Under the pieces are notes generated by a model. It searched no databases, was not told the DNA's origin, and saw only the letters and a program-made list of their open reading frames with translations. 64,000 nt of DNA. It comes from Desulfosoma sp. Its GTDB lineage: Bacteria > Desulfobacterota > Syntrophobacteria > Syntrophobacterales > DSM-9756. Below are positions 2,223 to 40,460 of this stretch, piece after piece (position 1 is the first letter of the stretch; every line of letters starts with the position of its first letter). Position numbers and translations under genes: made by a program. Where the stretch lies: NCBI GenBank assembly GCA_037481835.1, contig JBBFKW010000001.1:171503-235502 (forward strand), in the 5' to 3' direction.

Positions 2223-3173
2223 CTACCGTTCCAGGAGTTGGCTGGCCCAGACGGGGTTTTCGATCTTTTTGTTTTCCAGGTGCATGACGGCGTAAATGAT
2301 GCTGTTATAAGGCACGGGCACGCCGCATTCCTTGCCCAGGCGCACGACCATGCCGTTTAAGGCTTCGATTTCCGTCTTGCGGTGCCATTCCAGATCGCGC
2401 AGCATGGAACACTTAAACCGGCGATTGTAGGAACGGGCCAAAGCCATGGCCTCTTCCACCGCGTTTTCGGGAAGCCCGATGCCGCACTTCTTGGAAAGTT
2501 CCAGCACTTCCTTCATGGTGCCTTCCAGCACCTCCCGGGTTTCCGGGCAGTCCAGGATGAGGCCCAACGGGGCCCTGCCCAGAGTGCTCACCCCGTGCAC
2601 GCCGCAGATGAAGAGGAATTTGGCCCACAGGACTTGCTGGATGTTCTCGGACACCTCGGCGTCGATGCCGGCGTTTCGGAAGGCCTGGTAAATCCTTTCC
2701 ACTCGTTCGGATCGTTCCCCTTTGAGTTCCCCGAAGATGATCTTGCCGGGTTTGCCCGTGTGGGCAATGACGCCCGGTGATGCGATAGTCGATTCGATAA
2801 AGACGGTGCCGGCGAGGATCTTTTCTTCCCCGAAATGGCGGGCGAGTTTTTCGGCGTTGTCGATCCCGTTCTGAAGGGTCAGGATCACCGTGTCGGCTTC
2901 CACCATGGGTTCGGCAAACCGGGCGGCCTTTTCGGTATCATGAGACTTGACGCAAAAGAGGAGCAGATCCACCGGGCCGATCTCTTCGGGCTCGGATGTG
3001 GCGTGGATGCGCACCCGAAAATTTTCGTTGTTGGTCACCACCTCCAGGCCTTCTTCCTGTAAAGCCTCCAGGTGCTTTCCTCGAGCCACGAAATGAATGT
3101 CCATCCCGGCGCGCGCAAGAAACCCTCCGAAGTATCCTCCAACGCCTCCCGTTCCCATGACCCCGATCTTCAT
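2223..3173 (-). CDS. panE: 2-dehydropantoate 2-reductase (ketopantoate reductase)
   Basis: MKIGVMGTGGVGG Rossmann motif, CVKSHD, TLQNG, WAKF, SMLRD, EIEALNG; AAGGAG RBS before ATG 3173. Confidence 0.88.
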   Translation of the reverse strand: MKIGVMGTGGVGGYFGGFLARAGMDIHFVARGKHLEALQEEGLEVVTNNENFRVRIHATSEPEEIGPVDLLLFCVKSHDTEKAARFAEPMVEADTVILTLQNGIDNAEKLARHFGEEKILAGTVFIESTIASPGVIAHTGKPGKIIFGELKGERSERVERIYQAFRNAGIDAEVSENIQQVLWAKFLFICGVHGVSTLGRAPLGLILDCPETREVLEGTMKEVLELSKKCGIGLPENAVEEAMALARSYNRRFKCSMLRDLEWHRKTEIEALNGMVVRLGKECGVPVPYNSIIYAVMHLENKKIENPVWASQLLER

Positions 3174-3593
3174 TGACCGCTCCTTGTCGCTCCCGACCTT
3201 GCCGTCTCCCGAATCGCCCCGAGGGTGCCCCTTCGCGGACACCGAAAAACCGCTCTTCCAAGCCCAATCCGCGTATATATAGCGCCTCACCCAAGAGTCG
3301 TCAAACCTTTGGAAACACGCATCTTGCCGGCCCTCCCCACGACCCTCTCCTCTCTCCCCTTGTTCCTATTCATCCCTTCCTCTTGCTCCCATGGCTCTCT
3401 CGGGCATCTCCGTTCTCGTTTCTGTTGAGCGCCCAGAACCCTCCATCTCCTTTGCGCTCTCAACTTTCCATAGCCTTTGACAAAGCCGCCGAAACCCTTC
3501 ACTATACCGGCCGAATTCCTTATGGAAACTCATCCTTAAGGTCCGGAGCCGCCTCACGGCCCCCGAAAAACCCGCGTGGGAGATTGCGGCGTG

Positions 3594-5909
3594 ATGAAAA
3601 ACGTCTTCGACAATGTCCTGCAAGCCATCGGCAACACTCCCCTGGTGCGCATCAACCGCCTTAACCCCAATCCTCGAACGACCATCTACGCCAAGCTGGA
3701 ATGCAAGAACCCCGGCGGGTCCATCAAGGACCGCACGGCCCTGTTCATGATCGAGGCGGCCGAACGCAGCGGGGAGCTCACGCCGGACAAGACGATCATC
3801 GAGGCCACCAGCGGCAACACGGGCATCGGCCTCGCCGTGGTGGCCGCCGTCAAAGGGTACCGGCTCATCTTGGCCATGCCCGAAACCGCCAGCATGGAAC
3901 GCCAAAAGATCCTCAGGGCCCTCGGCGCCGAACTCCTCCTCACCCCCGGCGCCTTGGGCACGGACGGCGCCATCGAAGAAGTCTACCGGATGGTGAGGGA
4001 GCATCCGGACAAGTACTTCCTGGCGGATCAGTTCAACAATCCGGCCAATCCCGAGGCCCATTATCGAGGCACAGGCCCGGAAATCTACGAACAGACCGAA
4101 GGGCGCGTCAACGTGGTGGTGACCACCCTGGGCACAAGCGGCACGGCCATGGGCATCCTCCAAGCCATGAAGGAACGCAACCCCGCCATTGAAGTGGTGG
4201 CTGTGGAACCCTATCCGGGCCATAAGATCCAGGGCCTCAAAAATATGAAGGAATCTTACGTCCCCGGCATTTTTGACCGGCACAAGCTGGATCGCATCGT
4301 GCACGTCAAGGACGAAGACGCCTTCGAAATGGCCCGCCGGCTGGCTCGAGAAGAAGGGCTCTTTGTGGGCATGAGTTCCGGGGCGTGCATGGCGGCGGCC
4401 GTGGAAATCGCCAAGGAACGCCAAGACGGCCTGATCGTGGCCGTCCTTCCCGACGGCGGGGACCGCTACCTCAGCACCAACCTTTTCACCACCATGCTGG
4501 AGCCGGATTTTCGATTCTTCGACTTTCTGAGACGGGACAAAGTGGACTTCAAACCCGTCATGGAAGGGAAAATCCGCATTGCCGTCACCGGCCCTCCCTT
4601 GGACTCCTGCCTGTCGTTGGAAACCGCCCGGCGCCTTCTCCTCGCTGACATCCTCACCCGGTTCGTTCGATCCAAAGGGTTCCGCGTGGAAACGGCCGTC
4701 CTTCTTCCCGACCTGGACAGCCGATCCATCCAATGCGCCGCCGAAAGAGGCGCCCCTCTGGAACACTACGTGCACGAACGCTCGGCCGTCTTCGCCACGC
4801 AACTGGAAAAACTGGGCATGGCCGCCCAGCTTGTCATGACCAAAACGTCCGAACATACCGAAGCCGTCGTCTCCCTCGTCCGTTCGCTCCTCAAAAAAGG
4901 CGCCGCCTACGAAAAGCTCCGGTCGGTGTACTTCAGCGTGGCCCAGGCGGAGGATTACGGCCGTCTTTCCCGCATCGACCCCAAGAAAATCCGGCCCGGT
5001 TCTTCGGTGGACCTGAGCGCTTATGAAAAATTGAACCCGCGCGACTTTGCGCTGCTCAAACGAGCCACCCTGGCTGAACTCAAGCGCGGCGACTACGTCA
5101 AAACGGAATGGGGCAACGTGGTGCCCACCTGGCATATCGCGGCGGCGGCCATGGTCATGGACCGGTTCGGATTCCCTCTGGATCTGTGCGTCAGCGGCGT
5201 GGATTTTCTCTTCCCCCACCTGGAAAACGTCCACGCCATCGCGTGGGCCCTTGCGGGAAAGCCCTACGCGAACATCTGGCTTCTCACTGAAAGGATTCAA
5301 CAAGCGGACGACGGGGAGAGTCCCGAAACGGCGAAGGGGCTGACCCTGGAAGATCTCTACACCCAGGGCATGACGCCGGCAGAAATCCGGTTTTGGCTCA
5401 TCGCCTCGCACTACCGCAAACCCATGAGGGTTTCCGCCCAAAGCCTGCGCAGTGCCGCCCAAGGGCTCAAGAGGATCCGAGAATTCATCAGCCGGGTGCA
5501 TCATAGCCCCACCGAGGAACACATCGCCGACGGCGTGGAAGAAGAGGTTTTCTCCCTGGAACGGGGCTTCTTCGACGCCTTGGCCGATGATCTCAACACC
5601 CCCAAGGCCCTGGCGGCGCTTTTCGACTTCGTCCGAAAGATGAATCTTCGCATGGAACGCGGCCCCCTCACCCCCAGGGCCAAAGACGCGGTGCTCAAAG
5701 CCTTACAAAGCGTGGATCGGATTTTGGGCCTTTTCGAACGGGATCTTCGGGCTTTATCGCCCGACGAAAAGGCGCTCATCGACCAGCGGGAAGCGGCTCG
5801 AGCCGCCAAGGACTGGGCCCGAGCCGACGCCTTGCGAGACGAACTGAGGCGCCTGGGGATCGTCGTTCGAGACACCCCTCACGGCCCCCTATGGGAACGG
5901 GTTTCGTGA
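3594..5909 (+). CDS. Cysteine synthase (CysK/CysM) fused to a degenerate cysteinyl-tRNA synthetase-like module
   Basis: N-half has NPGGSIKDR, ATSGNTG, GTSGT, GMSSGA and PDGGDRYLS; C-half is collinear with CysRS (DFALLK, WHI, FPH, SHYRKP, DDLNTP, ADALRDEL) but lacks HIGH and KMSKS. Confidence 0.88.
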   Translation: MKNVFDNVLQAIGNTPLVRINRLNPNPRTTIYAKLECKNPGGSIKDRTALFMIEAAERSGELTPDKTIIEATSGNTGIGLAVVAAVKGYRLILAMPETASMERQKILRALGAELLLTPGALGTDGAIEEVYRMVREHPDKYFLADQFNNPANPEAHYRGTGPEIYEQTEGRVNVVVTTLGTSGTAMGILQAMKERNPAIEVVAVEPYPGHKIQGLKNMKESYVPGIFDRHKLDRIVHVKDEDAFEMARRLAREEGLFVGMSSGACMAAAVEIAKERQDGLIVAVLPDGGDRYLSTNLFTTMLEPDFRFFDFLRRDKVDFKPVMEGKIRIAVTGPPLDSCLSLETARRLLLADILTRFVRSKGFRVETAVLLPDLDSRSIQCAAERGAPLEHYVHERSAVFATQLEKLGMAAQLVMTKTSEHTEAVVSLVRSLLKKGAAYEKLRSVYFSVAQAEDYGRLSRIDPKKIRPGSSVDLSAYEKLNPRDFALLKRATLAELKRGDYVKTEWGNVVPTWHIAAAAMVMDRFGFPLDLCVSGVDFLFPHLENVHAIAWALAGKPYANIWLLTERIQQADDGESPETAKGLTLEDLYTQGMTPAEIRFWLIASHYRKPMRVSAQSLRSAAQGLKRIREFISRVHHSPTEEHIADGVEEEVFSLERGFFDALADDLNTPKALAALFDFVRKMNLRMERGPLTPRAKDAVLKALQSVDRILGLFERDLRALSPDEKALIDQREAARAAKDWARADALRDELRRLGIVVRDTPHGPLWERVS

Positions 5910-5992
5910 TCGCCGCTTCGGGAGCATGAAACATGCCGACTTTCCTCTAAAGGCAGTTTCACGGCTTCGGCGACGAAGGCCGCACATGCTCG

Positions 5993-7066
5993 TCATGGGG
6001 GCGATGGGACCGTGCCGTTGACACCCAGGATACTTCGCACCAGGCCCTCTTCGCCGGGTGCCAAAGGATAGGCGGCTTCTTCGCCGGCCGTGTTTCGAAA
6101 CACCACGCGATCCCGGTCCAAGCGAACCACAGCCGAAGCCGTCAACGGCACCTTGCCCAGTCCACCGGGAAGATCCACCACAACCTGAGGGATGGCCAGA
6201 CCGGAGATGCGGTTCCGCAAGGCGGCCACGAGGGAAGGCCCGGCCGTTATGGGGGTTCGAAAATGGGCCGTGCCGTGCATGAGGTCCATCTGGAGCAGGT
6301 AATAGGGGCGGATCCTGAGAGTGAGGAGTTCCATGAAGAGTTCAGCGAGCACCGTTGCGTCGTCGTTGACGGCCTTGAGGAGCACCGTTTGGCTTCCCAG
6401 GGGAATGCCGGCGTCGGCAAGGTTTCGGGCTGCCTCGCGGCTCTCGGGAGAAATTTCCTGAGGATGGTTGACGTGGATGTTCATGTAAAGGGGGTGGAAG
6501 GCTGCAAGGCGCCGTGCCAGATCGCGGCTTACCCGCGCCGGATCGGCAAAGGGCACTCGGGTGCCGATACGGATGAGGCGCACATGAGGGATTTCCCGCA
6601 CCTTGGCGCACACGCTCTCCAAAAAATCGAGAGAAAGCATCAAGGGGTCGCCCCCGGACAGGATGACGTCTCGAACCGCCGGGGTCTTGCGGATGTAGTC
6701 CAGAGCTTCGCGAACGAGCTCGTCCGTCAAGGGCACCGGGCGGGTCCAGCGTCGTTTGCGGGTGCAGAAACGGCAATGGACGGCACAGGCGTCCGTAAGG
6801 ATCCACAAGACGCGGTCGGGGTAGCGGTGGACCAGGTTGGGCACGGGGGATCGGCTTTCTTCCCCCAAGGGATCCCTCAGGCCCACGCGATCGTCGGCAT
6901 CCAGTTCCCTGGGATCGGGAACCACCTGGCGCCACAGGGGATCGCCCGGAGAGGCGATGAGGTCGGCAAAATGCCGGCTCAGCACAAAAGGGTACACTCC
7001 ATGGACCGCCTCCATGGGCTCGAAGGGCACTCGCCACCGAGCTGCAAACCGTTCCAAAGACATCAC
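5993..7066 (-). CDS. KamA-family radical SAM aminomutase (lysine/glutamate 2,3-aminomutase-like)
   Basis: HRYPDRVL, CAVHCRFC, ILSGGDPL, RIGTR, SQTVLLKAVND, DLPGGLGKVP. Confidence 0.85.
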   Translation of the reverse strand: MMSLERFAARWRVPFEPMEAVHGVYPFVLSRHFADLIASPGDPLWRQVVPDPRELDADDRVGLRDPLGEESRSPVPNLVHRYPDRVLWILTDACAVHCRFCTRKRRWTRPVPLTDELVREALDYIRKTPAVRDVILSGGDPLMLSLDFLESVCAKVREIPHVRLIRIGTRVPFADPARVSRDLARRLAAFHPLYMNIHVNHPQEISPESREAARNLADAGIPLGSQTVLLKAVNDDATVLAELFMELLTLRIRPYYLLQMDLMHGTAHFRTPITAGPSLVAALRNRISGLAIPQVVVDLPGGLGKVPLTASAVVRLDRDRVVFRNTAGEEAAYPLAPGEEGLVRSILGVNGTVPSPP

Positions 7067-7237
7067 GGCCTGTTCCTTCTCCCCTGGGTCGTTTCAAATA
7101 GGCCTTGGAAAGGTCGAGCCCCTCGCCTTTTAAGGCTCGACTTTCATCCATCTTCGTCACAACCCGGCGTGTGTCGTGATAAGGATCCGGGGGAGCGCAA
7201 CGACCCCCAACACCACTGATCCTTCCGAGGAGCCGCA

Positions 7238-8485
7238 GTGCTTCCGTCCTGGTTTCGCGTTTACGGTCGGCGCCATGTCTTGGGCCTCCTGGGCTTGGGC
7301 TTTTCCTCCGGCCTTCCCCTGGCGCTCACGGGAAGCACCCTCCAAGCCTGGATGAGCTCCGAAAAGGTGGATATCCGCCTCATCGGACTTTTTTCCCTCG
7401 TGGGACTTCCCTACACGCTCAAAGTGGCCTGGGCTCCCCTCATGGATCGCTTCCCAGCCCCCTGGCTGGGCAGGCGTCGGGGCTGGATCCTTACCACCCA
7501 GATCCTCCTGAGTGCAAGCTTCGTGATTCTGGGATCCCTCACACCTTCAGGCCACCTGCAGTTCATGGCCGTACTGGCTTTGCTCACCGCCTTCTTGAGT
7601 GCCAGCCAGGACATCGTCATCGACGCCTACCGTGCGGAAGTGCTTCCGGACGCAGATAAGGGAGCAGGTGCGGCCGTGAGCGTTGTCGGTTATCGCTTGG
7701 CCATGCTCACATCAGGGGCTATGGCCCTTATTCTCTCCGACCATGTGCCGTGGCGAGCCGTCTACACGGCCATGGGACTGATCATGGCGGCATGCGCCCT
7801 ATGGACGTTTGCTTGCCCCGAACCGACGGGCTTGGAGCCATCCCCGCCCCGCCCCAGGACCCTCCAGGAAGCCGTGTGGGCACCGTTTGTCGATTACTTT
7901 GCCCGGCCCGGAGCCGTGGCCATGCTGGCTTTCATCATGGTGTTCAAACTTAGTGATGCTTTGGCGGGAGCTCTGACCACGCCTTTCTTGCTGGATTTGG
8001 GGTTTACGCGAACGGATGTGGGCACGGTGAACAAAGCTTTCGGGCTGGGGAGCACCATTGCGGGCACTTTGGCAGGGGGCGCGATCGTCAATCGTCTTGG
8101 GATCGCCCGATCCCTGTGGGTTTCGGCCTTCCTCCAGGCTTTTTCCAACCTGGCCTTTGCGGGACTGGCCACGGCGGGCTGTCATTACCCTTTCATGGTC
8201 GGCGCGGTGGCCGTGGAAAATCTCTGCGGCGGCGTGGGGACGGCGGCCTTTCTGGCCTTTCTCATGAGCCTGTGCAACCGCCGCTACACCGCCACCCAAT
8301 ACGCGCTCCTTTCCAGCTTCATGGCCGTCTCGCGGGTTGTTGTCGGAGCTCCCACGGGATATTTGGCAGCGGCACTGGGTTGGCCGTGGTTCTACGTTGT
8401 AAGCGTTTTCGGGGCCGTTCCCGGCATCCTGCTTCTGCCCCGCTTCGCCCCTTGGCACCACACCACAGCCGGTCACAATGGGTAG
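7238..8485 (+). CDS. ampG: AmpG-family muropeptide MFS transporter
   Basis: LGFSSGLP, LPYTLKVAWAPLMD, GRRRGW, SASQDIVIDAYR, YTATQYALLSS. Confidence 0.88.
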   Translation: MLPSWFRVYGRRHVLGLLGLGFSSGLPLALTGSTLQAWMSSEKVDIRLIGLFSLVGLPYTLKVAWAPLMDRFPAPWLGRRRGWILTTQILLSASFVILGSLTPSGHLQFMAVLALLTAFLSASQDIVIDAYRAEVLPDADKGAGAAVSVVGYRLAMLTSGAMALILSDHVPWRAVYTAMGLIMAACALWTFACPEPTGLEPSPPRPRTLQEAVWAPFVDYFARPGAVAMLAFIMVFKLSDALAGALTTPFLLDLGFTRTDVGTVNKAFGLGSTIAGTLAGGAIVNRLGIARSLWVSAFLQAFSNLAFAGLATAGCHYPFMVGAVAVENLCGGVGTAAFLAFLMSLCNRRYTATQYALLSSFMAVSRVVVGAPTGYLAAALGWPWFYVVSVFGAVPGILLLPRFAPWHHTTAGHNG

Positions 8486-8582: not shown

Positions 8583-8837
8583 TCACGGGAGAAGGCTTCG
8601 AAACTCGTCCAGGCTTCGGACCCGCAGCGCTTGCCTGTGCAGTTCCTTGAGGTGCCGCCGGGATTCCACCCCCATGATCCGCTCTTCCACATCCCTCGGA
8701 ACCAACGTGAACCGCTCCGACAAGGCCTCCAGGACCATCTCGCGGGCTTCCGCCAGCATGCCCTCTTGGAGACCATGCCGCAGCCCCTCGTCGTAGCCTT
8801 CTTTCTTGATGAGTTCGTAACCCGCAGACTCCATCAT
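8583..8837 (-). CDS. Putative in-frame intragenic small protein (84 aa, Rpn antitoxin-like), copy C
   Basis: AAGGAGG followed by 6 nt and ATGATG, in frame inside the Rpn gene. Confidence 0.55.
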   Translation of the reverse strand: MMESAGYELIKKEGYDEGLRHGLQEGMLAEAREMVLEALSERFTLVPRDVEERIMGVESRRHLKELHRQALRVRSLDEFRSLLP

Positions 8838-9458
8838 GATATCCCTCCTTCGGCTCAAAAGCCGCCGGGGCAGCTCCTTGGAAACCAGACCCGACAAAAG
8901 CGCCATGCCGGTGAGCAAATCAGCCTTCTCCCCGCGCTCCAGCCTCGCCTCGCTCAACACTCGCTCCGCCTCGTCAAAAACCTCCACCCCTCCCTTCATC
9001 AGCCCCACAAACGGCAAAAGGCACGGATCGCCCAAACCCATGACCTCCCGAGCGTCCAAAGCCCCCACCGAAATCACCCGAAACGCATACCGCAGCCCGC
9101 CGTCCTCAAAAACTTCCTCCACAGCCCCACTCGGCGTCAGCAACAACACGGCCGGAAGCACCGAAAGGCCCGTCTTCATCCGATACCGAGCATCATATTC
9201 CAAAAGCCGAAGCGCCACATCCGGCACCCACCGGCTCTGCACCTCCAAAAGCACCACAAAAGTGCGCCCGTCCGCCGTGCGCACCCGCACCGGAAAATCA
9301 CTCCGCCTCAACGAGGCCGTCTCCTGGGGCAACTCCAAAATCTCCGACTCCTCCACCCGAAGCCCCAGAAAATACTCCAGCGCCGCCTTCCGGCACCGGC
9401 TCAAAATCACCTTCACCGCCGCATCGTAACTTCCCATGAGGCCTTGCTCAATGCTCAT
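8583..9458 (-). CDS. Rpn/YhgA-like PD-(D/E)XK nuclease family protein, copy C
   Basis: RRSD...LLEVQS (D..ExQ) motif, RLLEY, helical EG..EG C-terminal tail; start overlaps the stop of copy B (ATGA). Confidence 0.75.
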   Translation of the reverse strand: MSIEQGLMGSYDAAVKVILSRCRKAALEYFLGLRVEESEILELPQETASLRRSDFPVRVRTADGRTFVVLLEVQSRWVPDVALRLLEYDARYRMKTGLSVLPAVLLLTPSGAVEEVFEDGGLRYAFRVISVGALDAREVMGLGDPCLLPFVGLMKGGVEVFDEAERVLSEARLERGEKADLLTGMALLSGLVSKELPRRLLSRRRDIMMESAGYELIKKEGYDEGLRHGLQEGMLAEAREMVLEALSERFTLVPRDVEERIMGVESRRHLKELHRQALRVRSLDEFRSLLP

Positions 9459-9697
9459 CCCAATAAGTCTCGAAATTCCTCCAGGCTTCGAACCCGCAGC
9501 GCTTGCCTGTGCAGTTCCTTGAGGTGCCGGCGGGATTCCACTTCCATGATCCGCTCTTCCACATCCCGCGGAACCAACGTGAACCGCTCCGACAAGGCCT
9601 CCAGCACCATCTCGCGGGCTTCCGCCAACATGCCATGCCGCAGCCCCTCGTCGTAGCCTTCTTTCTTGATGAGTTCGTAACCCGCAGACTCCATCAT
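9455..9697 (-). CDS. Putative in-frame intragenic small protein (80 aa, Rpn antitoxin-like), copy B
   Basis: AAGGAGG followed by 6 nt and ATGATG, in frame inside the Rpn gene. Confidence 0.55.
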   Translation of the reverse strand: MMESAGYELIKKEGYDEGLRHGMLAEAREMVLEALSERFTLVPRDVEERIMEVESRRHLKELHRQALRVRSLEEFRDLLG

Positions 9698-10318
9698 GAT
9701 ATCCCTCCTTCGGCTCAAAAGCCGCCGGGGCAGCTCCTTGGAAACCAGACCCGACAAAAGCGCCATGCCGGTGAGCAAATCAGCCTTCTCCCCGCGCTCC
9801 AGCCTCGCCTCGCTCAACACTCGCTCCGCCTCGTCAAAAACCTCCACCCCTCCCTTCATCAGCCCCACAAACGGCAAAAGGCACGGATCGCCCAAACCCA
9901 TGACCTCCCGAGCGTCCAAAGCCCCCACCGAAATCACCCGAAACGCATACCGCAGCCCGCCGTCCTCAAAAACTTCCTCCACAGCCCCACTCGGCGTCAG
10001 CAACAACACGGCCGGAAGCACCGAAAGGCCCGTCTTCATCCGATACCGAGCATCATATTCCAAAAGCCGAAGCGCCACATCCGGCACCCACCGGCTCTGC
10101 ACCTCCAAAAGCACCACAAAAGTGCGCCCGTCCGCCGTGCGCACCCGCACCGGAAAATCACTCCGCCTCAACGAGGCCGTCTCCTGGGGCAACTCCAAAA
10201 TCTCCGACTCCTCCACCCGAAGCCCCAGAAAATACTCCAGCGCCGCCTTCCGGCACCGGCTCAAAATCACCTTCACCGCCGCATCGTAGCTTCCCATGAG
10301 CCCTTGCTCGATTCTCAT
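9455..10318 (-). CDS. Rpn/YhgA-like PD-(D/E)XK nuclease family protein, copy B
   Basis: Near-identical to its neighbours; ATGA overlap with copy A. Confidence 0.75.
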   Translation of the reverse strand: MRIEQGLMGSYDAAVKVILSRCRKAALEYFLGLRVEESEILELPQETASLRRSDFPVRVRTADGRTFVVLLEVQSRWVPDVALRLLEYDARYRMKTGLSVLPAVLLLTPSGAVEEVFEDGGLRYAFRVISVGALDAREVMGLGDPCLLPFVGLMKGGVEVFDEAERVLSEARLERGEKADLLTGMALLSGLVSKELPRRLLSRRRDIMMESAGYELIKKEGYDEGLRHGMLAEAREMVLEALSERFTLVPRDVEERIMEVESRRHLKELHRQALRVRSLEEFRDLLG

Positions 10319-10557
10319 CCCAATAAGTCTCGAAATTCCTCCAGGCTTCGGACCCGCAGAGCATGCCTGAGAAGTTCCTTAAGGTGCCGGCGGGATTCCA
10401 CTTCCATGATCCGCTCTTCCACATCCCGCGGAACCAACGTGAACCGCTCCGACAAGGCCTCCAGCACCATCTCGCGGGCTTCCGCCAACATGCCATGCCG
10501 CAGCCCCTCGTCGTAGCCTTCTTTCTTGATGAGTTCGTAACCCGCAGACTCCATCAT
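10315..10557 (-). CDS. Putative in-frame intragenic small protein (80 aa, Rpn antitoxin-like), copy A
   Basis: AAGGAGG (10570-10564) followed by 6 nt and ATGATG, in frame inside the Rpn gene. Confidence 0.55.
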   Translation of the reverse strand: MMESAGYELIKKEGYDEGLRHGMLAEAREMVLEALSERFTLVPRDVEERIMEVESRRHLKELLRHALRVRSLEEFRDLLG

Positions 10558-11157
10558 GATATCCCTCCTTCGGCTCAAAAGCCGCCGGGGCAGCTCCTTG
10601 GAAACCAGACCCGACAAAAGCGCCATGCCGGTGAGCAAATCAGCCTTCTCCCCGCGCTCCAGCCTCGCCTCGCTCAACACTCGCTCCGCCTCGTCAAAAA
10701 CCTCCACCCCTCCCTTCATCAGCCCCACAAACGGCAAAAGGCACGGATCGCCCAAACCCATGACCTCCCGAGCGTCCAAAGCCCCCACCGAAATCACCCG
10801 AAACGCATACCGCAGCCCGCCGTCCTCAAAAACTTCCTCCACAGCCCCACTCGGCGTCAGCAACAACACGGCCGGAAGCACCGAAAGGCCCGTCTTCATC
10901 CGATACCGAGCATCATATTCCAAAAGCCGAAGCGCCACATCCGGCACCCACCGGCTCTGCACCTCCAAAAGCACCACAAAAGTGCGCCCGTCCGCCGTGC
11001 GCACCCGCACCGGAAAATCACTCCGCCTCAACGAGGCCGTCTCCTGGGGCAACTCCAAAATCTCCGACTCCTCCACCCGAAGCCCCAGAAAATACTCCAG
11101 CGCCGCCTTCCGGCACCGGCTCAAAATCACCTTCACCGCCGCATCGTAGCTTGCCAT
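10315..11157 (-). CDS. Rpn/YhgA-like PD-(D/E)XK nuclease family protein, copy A
   Basis: MASYDAAVK start with GGAG RBS; same motifs as copies B and C. Confidence 0.75.
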   Translation of the reverse strand: MASYDAAVKVILSRCRKAALEYFLGLRVEESEILELPQETASLRRSDFPVRVRTADGRTFVVLLEVQSRWVPDVALRLLEYDARYRMKTGLSVLPAVLLLTPSGAVEEVFEDGGLRYAFRVISVGALDAREVMGLGDPCLLPFVGLMKGGVEVFDEAERVLSEARLERGEKADLLTGMALLSGLVSKELPRRLLSRRRDIMMESAGYELIKKEGYDEGLRHGMLAEAREMVLEALSERFTLVPRDVEERIMEVESRRHLKELLRHALRVRSLEEFRDLLG

Positions 11158-11330
11158 GATATTCTCCGAAGTCCGCTCAATTTTATTTCTGTGTATCATA
11201 CCGACAGCGGGGAACAAATACGAAGAACGGCTGCGAGGATGTGTCAAGACTCTTGCCGCTTTAGGACCAGCTCCCGGCCGGGAAGCTGGAATCCCAAGGA
11301 GCCGGAGGGAGGCCCGCTTGGGCGAGTTCA

Positions 11331-13172: not shown

Positions 13173-14273
13173 TCAGCAGATCCGGGGCAGAGGTTCCCCG
13201 CGCAGCATATCCACAATGCGGTGCCCGCCGATACGCGTCTTCAGCACGACGCGGCCGGGATCATCGGGGATCACTTCCCCGATGAGGGCCGCTTCCCGCC
13301 CCAGGGGATGTCCCCGCATGACCTCCAACGCCCTATCCGTGTCTTCCCGGGGAAGCACCACCAGAACCTTGCCCTCGTTGGCCATGTAGAGCGGCTCCAG
13401 TCCCAGGATTTCGCACGCCCCCGCCACATCGGGTCGGATCGGCAGGTTTTCTTCGAAAAGCCGAATGCCCACCCGCGACTGGCGCGCGATTTCGTTGAGG
13501 GTCGTCGCCACGCCGCCTCGAGTGGGATCGCGGAACACATGGATGCGGGGACACGCCTCCAGAAGCGCCGCCGTCAGAGTATGGAGCGGTGCGGAATCGC
13601 TTCGGATGTCCCCTCCCATGGAAAGCCCTTCGCGCGTGCACAAAACGGCTGTGCCATGGTCGCCGATGGTTCCGTTGATCAGCACCGCATCGCCGGGTCT
13701 CGCATTTTGCCCGCCCACCGAAACGCCAGGAGGAACGATCCCCACGCCCGCCATATTGATGAAGATCTTGTCCGCCTTCCCCCGAGGAACCACTTTGGTG
13801 TCCCCAGCCACGACGGCCACATCGGCCTCACGGGCCGCTTCGGCCATAGAGCGGACGATGATTCCCAAAAGCGCCATCTCCAACCCTTCTTCCAGGATGA
13901 AGCCGGCCGTGAGGTACAAAGGCCGGGCGCCGCTCATGGCCAGGTCATTGATCGTCCCATGCACGGCCAGAGACCCGATGTCGCCACCGGGGAAAATCAG
14001 GGGATCCACCACGTAAGAATCGGTGGTGAGCGCCAGGCGCGGCCCGGGAAGATCCATAACGGCGCTGTCGTTCATGGCTTCGAGAAATGGGTTCTGAAAA
14101 AGCGGCGCAAACACTTGATGGATGAGTTCATGAGTCGCCCGCCCTCCGCTGCCGTGATCCAACAGCACCTTTGTTTCCTTCACGTGTTCGACCCTTTCCG
14201 TGCCTTTGCGGTCCGCTTGTTCGCTTCCCCCCGTGAGCCCCATGGGATTGGGATTCGCTTCAGCGGCCGTCAT
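13173..14273 (-). CDS. hypE: Hydrogenase maturation protein HypE (true start may be GTG 14183)
   Basis: HGSGG, TTDSYVVDPLIFPGGDIG, GDTKVV, RDPTRGG, C-terminal PRIC. Confidence 0.95.
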   Translation of the reverse strand: MTAAEANPNPMGLTGGSEQADRKGTERVEHVKETKVLLDHGSGGRATHELIHQVFAPLFQNPFLEAMNDSAVMDLPGPRLALTTDSYVVDPLIFPGGDIGSLAVHGTINDLAMSGARPLYLTAGFILEEGLEMALLGIIVRSMAEAAREADVAVVAGDTKVVPRGKADKIFINMAGVGIVPPGVSVGGQNARPGDAVLINGTIGDHGTAVLCTREGLSMGGDIRSDSAPLHTLTAALLEACPRIHVFRDPTRGGVATTLNEIARQSRVGIRLFEENLPIRPDVAGACEILGLEPLYMANEGKVLVVLPREDTDRALEVMRGHPLGREAALIGEVIPDDPGRVVLKTRIGGHRIVDMLRGEPLPRIC

Positions 14274-14703
14274 GCAAGGTTTTACGCGGCAAGGCTTCCT
14301 GCTGCCCTCTTTTCATCAGGTAATAAGCAATGGCCAACCCCAAGGTGATGGCCGCCAACCCGATGATGCTCAAAGGAGTCTCTTTCTTGATGTCGAGGAT
14401 GATGATTTTACGGGCTACGGCGATGATGGCCACATTGAGAACCACCTCGAAGTGAGGCTGCTGCGGCGTGGCATACGTCTTGATCACGGTTTCTAAAAGC
14501 TCCAGGCCGATGAGCACGAGCAGAAACTGGCTGAAAAGTTCGAGGAGTTCGTCCACACTGAGCAGGAAATACGGCGGTGAGGAAAAGTCCACCCACAGCA
14601 GCCATGCAAGGTCCACGATGGTTGCCGTCAAGACAACGGCCATCATGACCATGAGCACCTGAAGGGCGATCCCTTCGAATCTTTGAATGATTCTGCTCAG
14701 CAT
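14260..14703 (-). CDS. PsiE-family (phosphate-starvation-inducible) membrane protein
   Basis: Four hydrophobic segments, LIGLELLETV, AIIAVARKIIILD. Confidence 0.75.
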   Translation of the reverse strand: MLSRIIQRFEGIALQVLMVMMAVVLTATIVDLAWLLWVDFSSPPYFLLSVDELLELFSQFLLVLIGLELLETVIKTYATPQQPHFEVVLNVAIIAVARKIIILDIKKETPLSIIGLAAITLGLAIAYYLMKRGQQEALPRKTLHDGR

Positions 14704-14721
14704 GGGGGCCTTTCGGAATCT

Positions 14722-15849
14722 CTAGTATTTCTCCTCAATGTCCAGGTCGGGGCCATCGTAATGGTATTTGAAGTACGCGCCGCAGGTTCCTTCACTGGAA
14801 ACCATACACGGTCCTTTGGGACTTTGCGGGGTGCAGACCTTTCGAAACAGCGGACACCCCGTCGGACGCAGTGCCCCTCGGAGCACATCGCCGCAGCGGC
14901 ATGCCGGATCTTCCCGAACGCTGAGGCTCGGCACCGAAAACCGCTTGGCGGCGTCGAAACGGGCCCACTCGTCCCGAATCGCCAAGCCCGATCCGGCAAT
15001 GAGCCCCAAACCCCGCCAGACGGCGTCGGCCGGCTGAAACACCCGGGCCATGAGCTCCTGCGCGGCGGGGTTGCCGTCCCACGTGACTCCGCGCCGATAT
15101 TGAATTTCGACGCGGGCCTCGCGGGAGGCGCGCTGTTGGGCAAGCATGAGCAGCCCCTGCAGAATGTCCAGGGGTTCAAATCCCGTGACCACGCACGGCA
15201 TGTGATAGCGGTGCGCCACAGTCTCATAGGCTTTGGCGCCGATGACCGTGGTCACATGGCCGGGACACAGAAACCCGTCCAGATGGAGCTCCCCCGATGA
15301 CAGAAGTGCCTCCATAGCAGGGGGAAGAACCTTATGGACACAAAAAACCGAAAAATTATCGAGGCCCAACCGATTTGCCAAGGTGATCGCCGCAGCCACT
15401 GTGGGGGCGGTGGTTTCAAAGCCGATGCCGATGAAGACCACATGGCGATCGGGATGTTCCCGAGCCAGATCCACGGCGTCGGTGGCGCTGTAAACCATGC
15501 GTACATCGGCCCCTCGAGCCCTTTCCTCCGCCAACGACGTGCGTGAGCCCGGAACGCGGAGCAAATCGCCGAAGGTGGCCGTCACGACCCCGGGCTGCGA
15601 GGCAAACCAGACGGCTTTGTCGATATCTTCCGTGGCGGTCACACACACGGGACATCCGGGGCCGCTCACGAGCTCCACCGTAGATGGCAGAAGGGGGCGC
15701 AGGCCCGAGCGAAAGACGGCTACCGTGTGCGTTCCGCAAATTTCCATAAACCGCATGGGCCCCAGGCCGGCGCAGCGCTTCTTGAGCTGCGCGAGAAGCT
15801 GTCGCGCCAATGCGCCGTCCCGATATTCGTCGACGTATTTCAAGGCCAT
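14722..15849 (-). CDS. hypD: Hydrogenase maturation protein HypD
   Basis: MEICGTHT, GPGCPVC, GFETT, PGHV, GPCMVSSEGTC. Confidence 0.97.
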   Translation of the reverse strand: MALKYVDEYRDGALARQLLAQLKKRCAGLGPMRFMEICGTHTVAVFRSGLRPLLPSTVELVSGPGCPVCVTATEDIDKAVWFASQPGVVTATFGDLLRVPGSRTSLAEERARGADVRMVYSATDAVDLAREHPDRHVVFIGIGFETTAPTVAAAITLANRLGLDNFSVFCVHKVLPPAMEALLSSGELHLDGFLCPGHVTTVIGAKAYETVAHRYHMPCVVTGFEPLDILQGLLMLAQQRASREARVEIQYRRGVTWDGNPAAQELMARVFQPADAVWRGLGLIAGSGLAIRDEWARFDAAKRFSVPSLSVREDPACRCGDVLRGALRPTGCPLFRKVCTPQSPKGPCMVSSEGTCGAYFKYHYDGPDLDIEEKY

Positions 15850-15944
15850 CCATTCCCCCGTTCGTGATCTTTAAAGACCGGCATCGCACCCGATAGGAAT
15901 CGTCCGCGGGCGTCCGGATCCCCCCGGCCACGGTCCCGCGGCAT

Positions 15945-18374
15945 TCAAAGGGCGGAGCCGATCCCCTCGAGGACGCATCGGCCGACGTAGGCTTGCCCCA
16001 AGGAAATGCACGCATCGTTCGGCGGCACCTTTTCGTGGGTCAAAACGGTCCATCCCGCGTTTTTCAATAGGCTCACGAGAGCCGTGCTCACATAGATATT
16101 CTGAAACACCCCTCCGCTCAAAGCCACGGTCCGGAGGCCCGTTTCCTCCCTCAGTCTGTCCAAGAGGCGCCCCACCGCTTGGATGATGCCGTTATGAAAG
16201 CGGCACGCCGCAATTCCGGGAAGGCAGCCCCGCATGAGATCGTCGGCCGCCTCGGCCACCAAGGATCGGCTGTCCACCACCCAAAGGTCCCCGTCTTTGG
16301 CAAATTCGGCACCGTAAGCGCCCCGGTCTTGGCGTATGGATTGCTCCAATTCGATGGCGGCTTGGCCTTCGTAATGGATCCGATCCCGAAGCCCACACAG
16401 AGAAGCCATAACATCAAAAAGTCGTCCGCACGAGGAGGTCTGCGGCGTATGGATTCCTCGGGAAAGCATTTCGAGCACCCCGCGGCGCTCCCTTTCAGGC
16501 CAGCGGCTTGTAAAGCAGCCGTAGCGTTCTTCCACCCGCTCCCCCGCAAGCAGCCACAGGGCGGCCAAGGCCGTGCGCCACGGTTCCTTGACAGCCCGGT
16601 CCCCTCCGGGCAGGGGCACATGGGAAAATCGCCCCAGCCGGCGGCACACCGCCCCGTCCACATAGAGAAATTCGCCACCCCAGACGGTCCCATCGCCTCC
16701 ATAACCCGTGCCATCCAAGGCCACGCCCAGAATCGGGCCGTCCACCTGCCTTTCGGCCGCTACCGAAGCGATGTGGGCGTGGTGGTGCTGCACTCCGATC
16801 CGGTACATGGAAGAACCCCCGCCGGGAATGTCGATGTCCCTTCCGCTCTCGTCCCCCTCCCGCTCGGGAAGCGGCTCCGCATGGGCCTCAGCCCACTGGG
16901 TGCTGAGATAGTCGGGATGAAGGTCATGGACAATCAAGGTGGGCCGGACGTCCAAGATTCTTTGGAGGTGCTCGATGGTTTTTTCAAACGCGCGCAGGGT
17001 CTCCATGTTTTCCAGATCGCCGATGTGCTGGCTGACAAAGGCGTCCCGGCCCCGGGTGAGGCACACGGTGTTTTTGAGTTCGGCGCCTGTTCCTAGAACC
17101 ACGGAGCCCGCACGAGCGAGTCGCACCGGCACAGGGACGTAACCCCTGGCGCGACGTACGGGCATGACCCCGCCGGGCAGGATACGGGTCACGGAATCAT
17201 CGCAGCGGATGTAGATGTCGCGGTTGTGCATGAGGAAAAAATCGGCGATGCCGGAAAGGCGGTCCCGCGCTTCCTCGTTTTCCGTAACGATGGGTTCATC
17301 GCTTCGGTTGCCGCTGGTCATCACGAGGGCAGGATAGGCGCAGTCTTGAAAAAGCAGCACATGGAGCGGCGTATAGGGAAGAAAAACCCCAAGAAAGGCG
17401 TTCCGAGGAGCAACGGAGGGCGCTATGGGCGAAACCGACGGGGGAAGTCGGCTTCGTTTTCGGAGCAGGACGATGGGCCGTTCCTTCGAAAGGATGAGGC
17501 CCTCTTCTTCAGGGCTCGCATGGCATACGGCCCTCACCGCTTCCATGTCTCGAAACATGACGGCGAAAGGCTTTTCTTCCCGAATCTTTCGACGCCGCAA
17601 CCGAGAAACCGCGTCCTCGTCCGTCGCCAAAGCGGCCAAATGAAACCCGCCGAGCCCCTTCACGGCGACAATGCGGCCCTCGTGCAGACACCGGACCGCT
17701 TCCCGCACGGCATCGTCCCGCTCGGCAAGGATCCGGCCTCGAGCGTCTTCCAACCACACGCGGGGCCCGCATGCGGGGCAGGCGTTGGGTTGGGCATGGA
17801 AACGCCGGTTCGTCGGGTCTTCGTATTCGGCCCGGCACTCCGCGCACATGGGAAAACAAGCCATGGTCGTCTTGTTTCGATCATAAGGGATGTCTCGGAT
17901 GATGGTGTAGCGAGGCCCGCAGTTGGTGCAGTTGATGAAAGGATAACGATAGCGCCTGTCTTCGGGATCCAGGAGTTCCCGCATGCAGTCGGCACAGACG
18001 GCCGTATCCGGCGAGATGAGTGCCGTCCGGTGATGTGAGGCATCGCTTGGGATGATGCGAAAACCCGAAAGGCCTTGGCAGGGTTTGTCGAAAACCGCAA
18101 TGGAACTGATGCGGGCCAGGGGCGGAGCTTCACGGCGCAGGGTTTCCAGAAAGCCTTCCACCGCCCCGGAGGGTCCTTCCAGCTCCATTTCCACGCCCGT
18201 GGCGTCGTTTCGCACCCAGCCGTTCAGACCCCATCGGCAAGCCGCCTGATAGACGAAAGGGCGAAAGCCCACCCCTTGGACAATTCCTTCCACGCGGATC
18301 CCAACGCGCCGAAGAGCCGCCCCTAGGAAAGGCCTTTGTGCTCCCGAATTCGGGCTTCCAGCCACGCCGTCCAT
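15945..18374 (-). CDS. hypF: Carbamoyltransferase HypF
   Basis: VQGVGFRPF acylphosphatase-like domain, Zn fingers (CTNCGPR, CPACGP), KGLGGFH, HDLHP, QHHHAH, SGGVFQN, PPND. Confidence 0.97.
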   Translation of the reverse strand: MDGVAGSPNSGAQRPFLGAALRRVGIRVEGIVQGVGFRPFVYQAACRWGLNGWVRNDATGVEMELEGPSGAVEGFLETLRREAPPLARISSIAVFDKPCQGLSGFRIIPSDASHHRTALISPDTAVCADCMRELLDPEDRRYRYPFINCTNCGPRYTIIRDIPYDRNKTTMACFPMCAECRAEYEDPTNRRFHAQPNACPACGPRVWLEDARGRILAERDDAVREAVRCLHEGRIVAVKGLGGFHLAALATDEDAVSRLRRRKIREEKPFAVMFRDMEAVRAVCHASPEEEGLILSKERPIVLLRKRSRLPPSVSPIAPSVAPRNAFLGVFLPYTPLHVLLFQDCAYPALVMTSGNRSDEPIVTENEEARDRLSGIADFFLMHNRDIYIRCDDSVTRILPGGVMPVRRARGYVPVPVRLARAGSVVLGTGAELKNTVCLTRGRDAFVSQHIGDLENMETLRAFEKTIEHLQRILDVRPTLIVHDLHPDYLSTQWAEAHAEPLPEREGDESGRDIDIPGGGSSMYRIGVQHHHAHIASVAAERQVDGPILGVALDGTGYGGDGTVWGGEFLYVDGAVCRRLGRFSHVPLPGGDRAVKEPWRTALAALWLLAGERVEERYGCFTSRWPERERRGVLEMLSRGIHTPQTSSCGRLFDVMASLCGLRDRIHYEGQAAIELEQSIRQDRGAYGAEFAKDGDLWVVDSRSLVAEAADDLMRGCLPGIAACRFHNGIIQAVGRLLDRLREETGLRTVALSGGVFQNIYVSTALVSLLKNAGWTVLTHEKVPPNDACISLGQAYVGRCVLEGIGSAL

Positions 18375-39348: not shown

Positions 39349-40449
39349 CTAGAACTTGAACTGCGTTGTGGTCCGCCACGTGGTCATGGCCAACCGGTAG
39401 TCGTCGATATGCTCGTGACGGAACTCAATACCCGTCTTTTCGAAGAACTTTTCCCAACCGATGCGATCGATCCATTCGCCGATGCGCTCATAGCGTTTGG
39501 CATCAGAGGCATAGGTTTCGAGCATCTTCTTAATGGTCTGGACCGTTGTCGGCCAGCGCGGCGGTTCGTTGGGGATGTAAGGCACGGCGAGCTTGGAGAA
39601 CTTGGGCGGAACGCGGGAGTTGGACACCTTCCCGCCGACCCACAGGGCGATGCCGTCGCCTTCCCCGTCCGCCAGAGGCAGAGCCGGGCACATGGTGTAG
39701 CAGTTGCCGCAGAACATGCAGCGGTTTTCGTTGATCTCGACGCTCTTGTAATCGCCCACCTTCTTCGGCTTGATGGCCGCCGTCGGGCACGCGGCGATGA
39801 CCAAGGGAATTTCGCACACGTTCTGGACGCGTTCATGCTCGATGATGGGCGGTTTGCGGTGCACGCCCAGAATGGCGATATCCGAGCAGTGCACGGCGCC
39901 GCACATGTTCAGGCAGCAGGCCAAGGAAATGCGCACCTGGGCCGGCAGCTTGTGGGAACCGAAATACTCGAAAAGCTCGTCCATGACGGCTTTGACGATC
40001 CCCGAAGCGTCAATGGCCGGCGTGTGGCAATGGACCCAGCCCTGCGTGTGGACGATGTTCGTCACACTGGCGCCTGTGCCGCCGATGGGGAACCAATTGC
40101 CGCGGCTCTTGAGATCGTCCATGAGCGGTTTCAGTTTGGACTTGTCGTCCACGAGGAACTCGATGTTGTTCCGAGTGGTCCATCGCACGTAGCCGCCGCA
40201 GTGCTTGTCAGCGATGTCGCAGATTTCGCGGATGAGGTCCACAGAAAGAAGCCGGGCGGCGCCCACGCGCACCGTGTAGACTTCGGCGCCCGTTTCGGAG
40301 ACATGCACCAACACGCCGGGTTCCAAGATTTCATGGTATTTCCACTTGCCGTAGTTTTCCTTGATAACCGGCGGGAAGAACTTGTCGTACTTGGGAGGTC
40401 CGATATCGGTGATGCGATCTTTCATAATGTCATTGGGATCGAATGGCAT
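39349..40449 (-). CDS. dsrB: Dissimilatory sulfite reductase beta subunit
   Basis: [46 protein letters not shown]. Confidence 0.98.
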
Positions 40450-40460
40450 GGTGTCACCTC

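Follow-up and report, generated by a model that had tools for sequence, protein, structure and literature searches.

A CysM-type cysteine synthase fused to a catalytically dead cysteinyl-tRNA synthetase paralog in Desulfosoma: a candidate tRNA-Cys-binding module

A 64,000-nt stretch of the Desulfosoma sp. assembly GCA_037481835.1 (contig JBBFKW010000001.1, positions 171,503 to 235,502 of the forward strand), referred to as the window and numbered from its first letter, carries at 3594..5909 (+) a gene for a 771-aa fusion protein, designated P0001. The N-terminal half of P0001 is a CysM-type cysteine synthase with the active-site motifs intact, and the C-terminal half is a paralog of cysteinyl-tRNA synthetase (CysRS) in which the catalytic residues have been replaced and the anticodon-binding domain has been kept. 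The reading preferred here, which is given a probability of about 0.4, is that the dead CysRS half acts as a non-catalytic tRNA-Cys-binding module that couples the cysteine synthase to the status of tRNA-Cys. Public databases call the protein either 'cysteine synthase' or 'cysteine--tRNA ligase', and the second name is wrong for the clade to which the window protein belongs. The fusion was found to be undescribed in the literature searched (supplements and subscription journals lay outside the scope of the search), and it goes unmentioned in passages of PMC8762117 and PMC11580382.

Two halves of the fusion protein

An in-frame GTG is present at 3576, upstream of the ATG at 3594. The ATG is favoured as the start codon because the homologs all begin with MKNV at the same place and because a GGGAGA motif precedes it at a suitable site. 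Pfam models were matched over almost the full length of P0001: PALP at residues 9-287 (6e-73), tRNA-synt_1e at 319-621 (2e-42), DALR_2 (PF09190) at 659-715 (1.8e-11) and CysS_C (PF23493) at 720-762 (2.4e-13). Among the NCBIfam models the protein scored above the cut-off of cysKM (TIGR01136, 383.6 versus 344.15 bits) and below that of cysS (TIGR00435, 235.2 versus 340 bits), and the cut-off of MshC (TIGR03447) was not reached either (107.2 versus 485.1 bits). The CysRS-like part starts at about residue 303, corresponding to base 4500, in agreement with the first-pass annotation, which had been made from the sequence alone. The motifs quoted there were all found in the translation exactly as given: GGSIKDR (with K45), TSGNTG (72-77) and GTSGT (180-184) in the CysM half, AVTGPPLD (330-337), SLET (341-344), WHIAAAAM (513-520) and FPHLENV (540-546) in the CysRS-like half, and DDLNTP (665-670) and ADALRDEL...VVRD (743-760) near the C-terminus; KMSKS is absent. 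The features of the gene are listed below.

3594..5909 (+): coding sequence of the fusion protein P0001, 771 aa, stop included (translation of the open reading frame, ORF; homologs begin MKNV at the same place)
3578..3583 (+): GGGAGA, ribosome-binding-site-like, 10 nt before ATG 3594 (direct reading of the sequence)
3594..4493 (+): CysM-type cysteine synthase domain, residues 1-300, with the pyridoxal phosphate (PLP) lysine K45 at 3726-3728 (PALP, TIGR01136, conservation)
4470..4508 (+): inter-domain linker, residues 293-305, LSTNLFTTMLEPD (conservation in 115 homologs; AlphaFold predicted local distance difference test, pLDDT)
4509..5456 (+): CysRS-like Rossmann, CP and stem-contact region without catalytic motifs, residues 306-621 (tRNA-synt_1e, 2e-42; 1u0b_B as best structural match)
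4587..4634 (+): remodelled 'C28...HIGH' segment, TGPPLDSCLSLETARR, residues 332-347 (alignment of 117 forms)
5130..5153 (+): WHIAAAAM replacing WHIECSAM, residues 513-520, second zinc Cys lost (alignment of 117 forms)
5211..5231 (+): FPHLENV replacing FPHHENE, residues 540-546, zinc His kept and zinc Glu lost (alignment of 117 forms)
5310..5336 (+): loop at the KMSKS position, DGESPETAK, residues 573-581, motif absent (columns gapped and unconserved; pLDDT < 50)
5568..5738 (+): helical-bundle DALR_2 domain, residues 659-715 (PF09190; 6/8 canonical-invariant columns kept)
5751..5879 (+): CysS_C anticodon-binding alpha/beta domain, residues 720-762 (PF23493; 8/8 canonical-invariant columns kept)

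The SxKDR motif with the PLP lysine, the TSGNTG asparagine loop and the GTxGT glycine loop define the CysK/CysM enzymes. K45, T72-G77, G180/T181/G183/T184 and S261 of P0001 are invariant among 115 homologs which, together with the cysKM score, bears out the earlier description of the N-terminus as a complete PLP-dependent CysK/CysM. The synthase appears to be of the CysM type, since it lacks the 7-8-residue CysK loop present in 2q3b and 1ve1, and since its residues 190-300 align without gaps to residues 186-292 of E. coli CysM (2bhs/2bht). It resembles CysM (E. coli 2BHS, Salmonella 2JC3) in the PLP site, in the short loop and in overall structure (match to 2bhs_B with a target TM-score of 0.93), and differs from it in bearing a 470-residue C-terminal pseudo-synthetase and in the loop residues, GLKNMKES in the fusion versus GIRRWPTE in E. 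coli. It also stays under the cut-offs of the CysM equivalogs TIGR01138 (370.8 versus 394.2 bits) and PRK11761 (353.6 versus 413 bits), the loop length being CysM-like. With its active site intact, the CysM half is predicted to be an active PLP-dependent cysteine synthase.

To follow the fate of the synthetase motifs, residues 300-771 were used in a word-indexed search, which returned at least 120 hits; all but 4 of the 120 listed carried PF00291 and PF01406 and were about 770-830 aa long, and the closest named relatives among the matches listed were Desulfosoma and Desulfacinum. The host's own cysS, P0001 and 116 hits were aligned with MAFFT (117 pseudo-forms; four hits shorter than 700 aa were excluded). 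The zinc ligands of CysRS, which we take from E. coli structure papers to be C28, C209, H234 and E238, served as reference points. The first zinc Cys is Thr (T332) in 114 of the 117 pseudo-forms, and the second is Ala in 102 and Cys in none, with the W and H of that motif kept. The HIGH positions read [TS][LIV][QE][ED], the majority having no His there and the window protein having SLET, and the two arginines just after them (RR346-347) are invariant (117/117). All 117 forms have retained the F, P, H, E and N of FPHHENE; the second H has become L (L543) in 116, and the zinc Glu is replaced by V, L, M or I. Gaps and variable residues mark the stretch where KMSKS would lie. Residues conserved specifically in the clade include T332, P334-P335, D337, R347, P372, S376, R377, T512 and L543. 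The four zinc-ligand positions of the window protein read T, A, H and V (T332, A517, the His and V546), that is, three of the four ligands are gone, and the equivalent of E. coli T68 is replaced as well (P372).

Class I synthetases need HIGH and KMSKS for adenylation; since both are lacking, the C-terminal half is predicted to be unable to adenylate. Nor should cysteine be recognised in the canonical way, by zinc-thiolate contact, in the window clade, where the T68 equivalent and all zinc ligands but one have been replaced. The first-pass annotation had called this half a catalytically eroded pseudo-synthetase. The loss of catalytic residues proved to be clade-wide, comprising HIGH, KMSKS, both zinc Cys, the zinc Glu and, in addition, the T68-equivalent Thr. 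The term 'eroded' is misleading: since the replacement residues are themselves conserved, the pocket is, as judged from the alignment, remodelled and not in random decay.

Compared with canonical CysRS (E. coli CysS 1U0B/1LI5; archaeal-type 8QHP), the fusion shares the full-length fold, the domain order, the anticodon signature and most of the CP invariants, and it has in common with the cysS genes that follow cysM in contigs of archaea and of the Candidate Phyla Radiation (CPR) an archaeal-type insertion, YEK..P.DF.LLKR.T..ELKRG. It is unlike canonical CysRS in lacking HIGH and KMSKS, in keeping only the His of the four zinc ligands, in falling under the TIGR00435 cut-off, in being joined to CysM and in coexisting with a real cysS.

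The retention of canonical residues was scored at 119 columns that are at least 90 % conserved in a canonical set (n=10), a column being counted as kept when the same residue occurred in at least 80 % of 115 pseudo-domains. The canonical set comprised E. coli CysS and the cysS of the host itself, four archaeal-type cysS from loci with split cysM and cysS, two standalone representatives and, from two fused forms whose motifs are intact or nearly so, the C-terminal parts. The pseudo-family kept 64 of the 119 columns, distributed over the presumed domains as follows.

Rossmann fold: 25/62 columns kept
CP domain: 20/24 columns kept
Stem-contact fold including KMSKS: 5/17 columns kept
Helical bundle: 6/8 columns kept
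Anticodon alpha/beta domain: 8/8 columns kept

The eight residues of the anticodon domain, R732, R736, A744, D745, R748, G755, D760 and G764, correspond to E. coli R423, R427, A435, D436, R439, G446, D451 and G455, and the earlier statement that the anticodon-binding region is retained was thus correct for what is the best-kept part of the whole half. Passages of a preprint on E. coli CysRS describe R427 as the anticodon-domain end of an allosteric path and place the anticodon domain about 70 A from the active site. The CP1 domain, according to the part consulted of Mukai et al. (PMC5389517), recognises the first acceptor base pair of tRNA-Cys.

Selection on the gene was estimated by the Nei-Gojobori method as the ratio of nonsynonymous to synonymous substitution rates (dN/dS), for the window gene against locus L020 (protein 92% identical) and for three Desulfacinum pairs.

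Window versus L020: CysM half 0.034, pseudo-catalytic region 0.084, helical and anticodon domains 0.055
Three Desulfacinum pairs: CysM half 0.05-0.07, pseudo-catalytic region 0.11-0.14, helical and anticodon domains 0.13

The overall range was 0.03-0.19 and that of the anticodon domain 0.03-0.17, leaving out one comparison of a 52-codon sub-region in a nearly identical pair, in which a handful of substitutions gave a value of 1.38 that was taken as noise. Judged by these ratios the fusion is under purifying selection and not decaying. The first-pass annotation had proposed to align homologous fusions and to compute dN/dS; the outcome was a motif loss common to the clade, a conserved anticodon domain and purifying selection.

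The AlphaFold2 model built on a 115-row alignment had a mean pLDDT of 86.7 and a predicted template modelling score (pTM) of 0.67, with low-confidence stretches at residues 293-302, 470-481 and 573-581. The first of these falls in the short linker (pLDDT < 50 at residues 293-302), the end of which is conserved: E303, P304 and D305 are invariant and F306/F308 nearly invariant among the 115 homologs. The top Foldseek hit of the model was 1u0b_B, the E. coli CysRS bound to tRNA-Cys (E 1.1e-33), followed by 8qhp_A (target TM-score 0.89) and then by many CysK/CysM structures. Complex prediction of the CysM half against the pseudo-CysRS half, run without controls, gave scores of 0.18 and 0.14 versus a mark of 0.32.

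A graded series of fused and paired forms

The fusion family forms a graded series, newly seen here, that runs from intact to fully dead synthetase halves with a nearly constant anticodon signature. Beside the fused forms stand loci in which cysM is directly followed by a separate and fully intact archaeal-type cysS (L026 5353-7656, L028 765-3126, L029 3891-6211 and L030 2179-4459). The contigs with these split pairs come from bins labelled Heimdallarchaeota, Patescibacteria, Saccharibacteria and Methanosarcinales, labels that were taken from the records and may be unreliable. The two genes of L026 share a frame and are separated by one stop codon.

Fused representatives were collected by an exhaustive HMMER search of a 50%-representative library and by motif alignment. 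One of them, P0126, a 768-aa fusion from a metagenome-assembled genome of Nanoarchaeota, has all motifs, CGPTVYDYAHIGN, WHLECSAM and KMSKS. The archaeal and CPR pairs and the intact fusions thus have the same two modules in the same order as P0001; they differ in keeping all motifs, presumably being bifunctional, and the window protein stands at the fully degenerate end. Between these extremes P0122 carries HLGN and KMSRS, and HIGH, KMSKS and one zinc Cys are missing from P0123. The synthetase halves of P0124 (Desulfovibrio ferrophilus), P0127 and P0128 are also dead, but not in the manner seen in the window's clade.

A signature table was compiled for 27 fused forms, namely the window protein, 20 fused loci from across the phylum and 6 representatives. 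The zinc/cysteine signature CCHETW is intact in 12/27 forms and KMS[KR]S is present in 7/27. The most intact fused state is CCHETW / HIGN / KMSKS, five forms (L114, L123, L124, L126 and L130) keep CCHETW with KMSKS lost, and four, the window protein among them, have lost all catalytic signatures. The anticodon signature RRADRGDG is exact in 17 forms, and the other 10 depart from it by one or two positions (one missing). All five of its charged residues remain in 25/27, the two exceptions being R-to-K changes.

The near-intact fusions with HLGN and KMSRS score 440-457 bits, over the cysS cut-off, and from their motifs are probably active as CysRS. A standalone cysS of 566-602 bits was found in all five of the genomes with near-intact fusions that were checked, and catalysis by the fused synthetase is regarded as dispensable because of this standalone gene. 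The fused synthetase would then have been redundant from early on, the handling of ATP being lost first and the zinc site later, with the anticodon domain held throughout. A maximum-likelihood tree of 30 rows, rooted at the midpoint only and including seven rows of deviant composition, placed the two dead clades next to each other, split from the rest by a 98/94 branch, with the partly degenerate forms nearest to them.

The distribution of the fusion was surveyed at two levels. At a threshold of E <= 1e-100 for the pseudo-domain, the fusion is present in 109 of 121 genomes of the host's class, its open frames measuring about 770-890 aa. In three more the copy is partial or interrupted, and two incomplete genomes gave no match; at least two matches were obtained in 89/121, the second being a canonical cysS at about 160-177 bits. 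The survey of the phylum (301 genomes, E <= 1e-60) found the fusion in 121 genomes and in 78/200 genera, with nearly all matches in frames of at least 740 aa and with presence being all-or-none within most families. The fusion family is ancient and retained. Syntrophobacter fumaroxidans, Desulforhabdus amnigena and Desulfovibrio ferrophilus are cultivable species that carry it. Two matches of the phylum survey lie in frames longer than the usual 770-850 aa, of 1403 aa (G286:C12:121520-122914) and 1181 aa (G306:C318:30290-31681), which may represent extra fused domains or mere long stop-free stretches.

Cysteine metabolism and genomic context in the host

The host assembly (3.63 Mb in 38 contigs, 99.4% complete) has a separate canonical cysS, which the first-pass annotation had suggested looking for; it lies on contig C18, scores 583 bits and has CGVTVYDLCHVGH, WHIECSAM, FPHHENE and KMSKS. 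The fusion is the sole match of the cysK/M family above cut-off in this genome, the next hits of the profile (79 and 71 bits) being threonine dehydratases, and it is therefore taken as the only cysteine synthase of the host. No serine acetyltransferase was found over the cysE cut-off in the host genome (best 46 bits versus 210.65), and no SepRS (TIGR00470) either, the best score being 19.8 versus 380.65 bits. With no other CysK/M enzyme and no cysE found in the genome, the fusion must carry the cysteine synthesis of the cell. Its serine donor is probably something other than O-acetylserine made by CysE, and O-phosphoserine would be the obvious candidate.

A cysE-like gene is present in 92 of the 121 class genomes, scoring 160-172 bits (under the 210.65 cut-off) with the profile covered, in ORFs of about 320-430 aa. 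It occurs in 1/8 other genomes of the host's family and in none of six genomes of a second family, f2. In many class genomes the cysE-like gene has a standalone cysK next to it (415-460 bits, ORFs of about 306-330 aa), for example at 3508517-3509410 and 3509562-3510053 on contig C1 of G048 and at 2757-3638 and 3729-4220 on contig C39 of G019. By hand count, at least two cysK/M matches were found in 81/92 genomes with the cysE-like gene and in 2/29 without it; no statistic was attached to these counts because the genomes are kin. Neither a cysE-like gene nor a standalone cysK was seen in the host genome, in 7/8 others of its family and in 6/6 of family f2, and most other families of the class have the two side by side. 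These counts indicate that the fusion was kept both alongside the classical pair and, as in the host, alone. The idea that the fusion replaces CysE feedback and anticorrelates with cysE was rejected, as the 92 genomes with a cysE-like gene are mostly fusion-positive too.

The window also contains dsrA at 40494-41708 (-), with a score of 577 bits that exceeds its cut-off, which identifies the host as a dissimilatory sulfite or sulfate reducer and agrees with the sulfide-producing organism supposed earlier. A dsrB-like neighbour lies beside it, the pair spanning 39394-41708 (-).

ARAGORN listed 46 tRNA genes in the host genome, including two for tRNA-Cys(GCA): a normal one of 75 nt and, on contig C21, one of 92 nt that has U73 and a long variable arm. 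The latter, at C21:7235-7326 (-), is situated upstream of a second selB at C21:4149-6113 (-) with a score of 277.5 bits (loci L087 and L134); the main selB, of 411 bits, is on C8. These two genes match the selC*/selB* arrangement, which the part consulted of Mukai et al. 2017 (PMC5389517) describes for Syntrophobacterales and Desulfobacterales. The same source describes CysRS* of Desulfobacterales as a catalytically active enzyme without an anticodon-binding domain, adjoining selB*. What the fusion and CysRS* have in common is that both are additional CysRS paralogs and occur within one group of anaerobes; the fusion is unlike CysRS* in having an anticodon domain, in being dead and in its position on contig C1, the selC*-type tRNA and the second selB being on C21. 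The 92-nt tRNA was found at full length in 14/121 class genomes and in 7/8 others of the host's family by a one-query BLAST that may miss divergent copies. Since it is full-length in so few class genomes (14, versus 109 for the fusion), the long-arm tRNA is not a general partner of the fusion, and the proposal of a selC*-type tRNA-Cys as its obligate partner was discarded.

The immediate surroundings of the fusion gene comprise the following features.

3477..3482 (+): TTGACA, -35-like hexamer of a candidate own promoter (conservation in the upstream alignment)
3500-3507 (+): A/T-rich (C)TATA block, about 17-19 nt after TTGACA (conservation in the upstream alignment)
2223..3290 (-): PanE/ApbA gene of the ketopantoate-reductase family, divergent (Pfam ApbA, ApbA_C)
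5993-7066 (-): lysine-2,3-aminomutase-like radical SAM gene on the other flank, in opposite orientation (neighbour annotation)

Among eight upstream regions (the window and seven class loci) the TTTGACAA and ATA columns are invariant, the spacer being otherwise 37% identical. The promoter assignment rests on this conservation only, because a consensus promoter scanner did not include TTGACA among its listed sites. An Rfam scan of 2800-7400 (E <= 1) gave no matches, hence no riboswitch or T-box. The candidate of a 5' untranslated region mimicking the anticodon arm of tRNA-Cys was also dropped, no GCA being found by eye in 3510-3593. Since the gene stands alone behind a conserved candidate promoter with no riboswitch or T-box, there is room for control at the level of the protein. 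The PanE/ApbA gene lies upstream of the fusion in 7/7 class loci and in 0/20 phylum loci.

Two further features of the window may be mentioned. Three tandem copies of an 860-872-bp unit occupy 8583-11247 (-), each with an ORF of 287-310 aa, and share a 300-nt core that is 100% identical. Two of the copies were scanned and gave no Pfam match (E <= 1e-5 for one and <= 0.01 for the other), and Tandem Repeats Finder, with a longest period of 500, did not detect the repeat. A hydrogenase-maturation cluster at 13173-18374 (-) encodes HypD, HypF and an AIR-synthase-like gene, probably hypE.

Possible functions of the CysRS-like half

The preferred reading proposes that the CysM half makes cysteine while permanently tethered to a CysRS paralog that can neither activate cysteine nor charge tRNA. 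The dead half would dock tRNA-Cys through its anticodon-binding and acceptor-side (CP) domains, and uncharged tRNA-Cys, for example, would bind and tune the attached synthase. Docking of tRNA-Cys is considered the simplest reading because the anticodon and CP domains are what selection has preserved in the family, whatever the state of its members, and binding of tRNA-Cys by the C-terminal half, taken by itself, appears probable from the pattern of conserved residues.

Such a protein would act in cis and post-translationally, in analogy to HisZ or to the HisRS-like domain of GCN2. To our knowledge, very few cases of pseudo-synthetases regulating metabolism are known, these two and some eukaryotic paralogs among them. 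HisZ, a HisRS paralog without an anticodon-binding domain, is the histidine-sensing regulatory subunit of the ATP-phosphoribosyltransferase HisG. The fusion resembles it, by analogy and not by homology, in the physical coupling of a dead synthetase paralog to the biosynthetic enzyme of the cognate amino acid. It is unlike HisZ in that its anticodon domain is the part best kept and its amino-acid pocket is destroyed in the window clade, in that it is a single chain and not a separate subunit, and in that it acts at the last and not the first step of the pathway. In the eukaryotic GCN2, uncharged tRNA is bound by the HisRS-like domain, which controls the attached kinase in cis and is not specific for a tRNA species. 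Here too a dead synthetase-like domain is attached to an enzyme, and GCN2 serves as a model for the fusion with no homology implied; the output is a kinase in GCN2 and a biosynthetic enzyme in the fusion.

Several points weigh against tRNA-Cys docking coupled to control of the synthase. Conservation of the anticodon domain could reflect the stability of the fold or another ligand; its residues are labelled anticodon-reading on the basis of family conservation and of the preprint passage on R427; and the domain borders in the column count were assumed after published E. coli structures instead of being computed. The AlphaFold model contains no confident inter-domain geometry (pTM 0.67, linker pLDDT < 50). 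No conserved partner gene emerged across the 20 phylum loci, where only the fusion itself and antisense shadow ORFs clustered. Seven of the 121 class genomes (85-97% complete) have a cysS-level match only, so that the fusion is not indispensable. Finally, many relatives (12/27) keep the zinc/cysteine pocket, which makes the sensing of cysteine as plausible there as the sensing of tRNA, and the common function of the fusion family may differ from what the window's clade suggests.

A more specific proposal goes beyond docking and sees in the fusion a bacterial in-cis sensor of tRNA charging, which would read the anticodon of tRNA-Cys and, with the remodelled pocket, the state of the 3' end, switching the synthase in response. 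As it stands this is doubtful. If true, the synthesis of an amino acid would be set by its cognate tRNA at the protein level, without riboswitch, T-box or RelA, and the graded series (intact, ATP site lost, zinc site lost) would be the record of an enzyme turning into a receptor.

It is rather unlikely that the dead CysRS is a scaffold or relic, kept for the folding, solubility or oligomerization of CysM or for the docking of a partner, with neither tRNA binding nor regulation. The refilling of the zinc site with small hydrophobic residues (AAA, L, V), as for metal-free stabilization of a fold, would suit this explanation, as would the lack of a conserved partner or operon in the phylum loci, the poorly defined inter-domain geometry and the few class genomes that seem to manage without the fusion. 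It leaves unexplained why the distal anticodon domain, which the preprint passage places so far from the active site in E. coli CysRS, should be the best conserved (8/8 columns; charged residues in 25/27), and the dN/dS of 0.03-0.17 for that domain is a poor fit.

Less probable again, in the window clade, is a sensor of the HisZ type, in which the dead synthetase would use its old pocket to bind free cysteine, or a thiol related to it, and would feed back on CysM; the estimate would be higher for clades that keep the zinc site. The precedent of HisZ and HisG speaks for this possibility, and the five fused forms with CCHETW intact and KMSKS lost show the pattern of a binder that no longer adenylates. 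The host genome moreover lacks CysE, the usual point of cysteine feedback, but the absence of cysE does not track the fusion in the class, and the window clade has lost the T68 equivalent (now P372) along with three zinc ligands out of four (now T332, A517 and V546).

The first-pass annotation had offered regulation, channelling and presentation of a tRNA-bound substrate as functions, and the last of these is the least likely, because SepRS is missing and most relatives have a classical cysE-like/cysK pair. Chemistry on tRNA, in which Ser or O-phosphoseryl on the 3' end of tRNA-Cys would be converted to Cys in the PLP site of CysM, SepCysS- or SelA-like with a fold-type-II enzyme, is accordingly rated as quite improbable. 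It would make sense of a host in which the fusion is the sole cysteine synthase, no cysE was found and the second tRNA-Cys(GCA) is of an unusual kind, its variable arm being long, and of the retention of the anticodon and CP domains; yet a canonical CysRS is present in the host, the long-arm tRNA is far rarer in the class than the fusion, and there is no evident way to make Ser-tRNA-Cys. A working non-canonical CysRS or other ATP-dependent ligase, which the database name and the probably active HLGN/KMSRS relatives would favour, can be put aside as highly improbable, given the absence of HIGH, KMSKS and the zinc site, the unconserved loop at the KMSKS position, a cysS score about 100 bits short of the cut-off and the established need of class I synthetases for both motifs.

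The fusion is widespread, being present in 121 of the 301 genomes sampled from a major phylum of sulfate reducers and syntrophs, and in lineages such as that of the host it is the sole cysteine synthase. Both database labels, 'cysteine--tRNA ligase' and plain 'cysteine synthase', mislead the reconstruction of pathways. The lack of cysE in the host lineage raises the metabolic question of the serine donor of CysM. The natural series of intact, half-dead and dead fusions provides ready material on how an enzyme becomes a sensor, and if the dead half does bind tRNA-Cys, the fusion would illustrate how a tRNA can control the enzyme by which its own amino acid is made.

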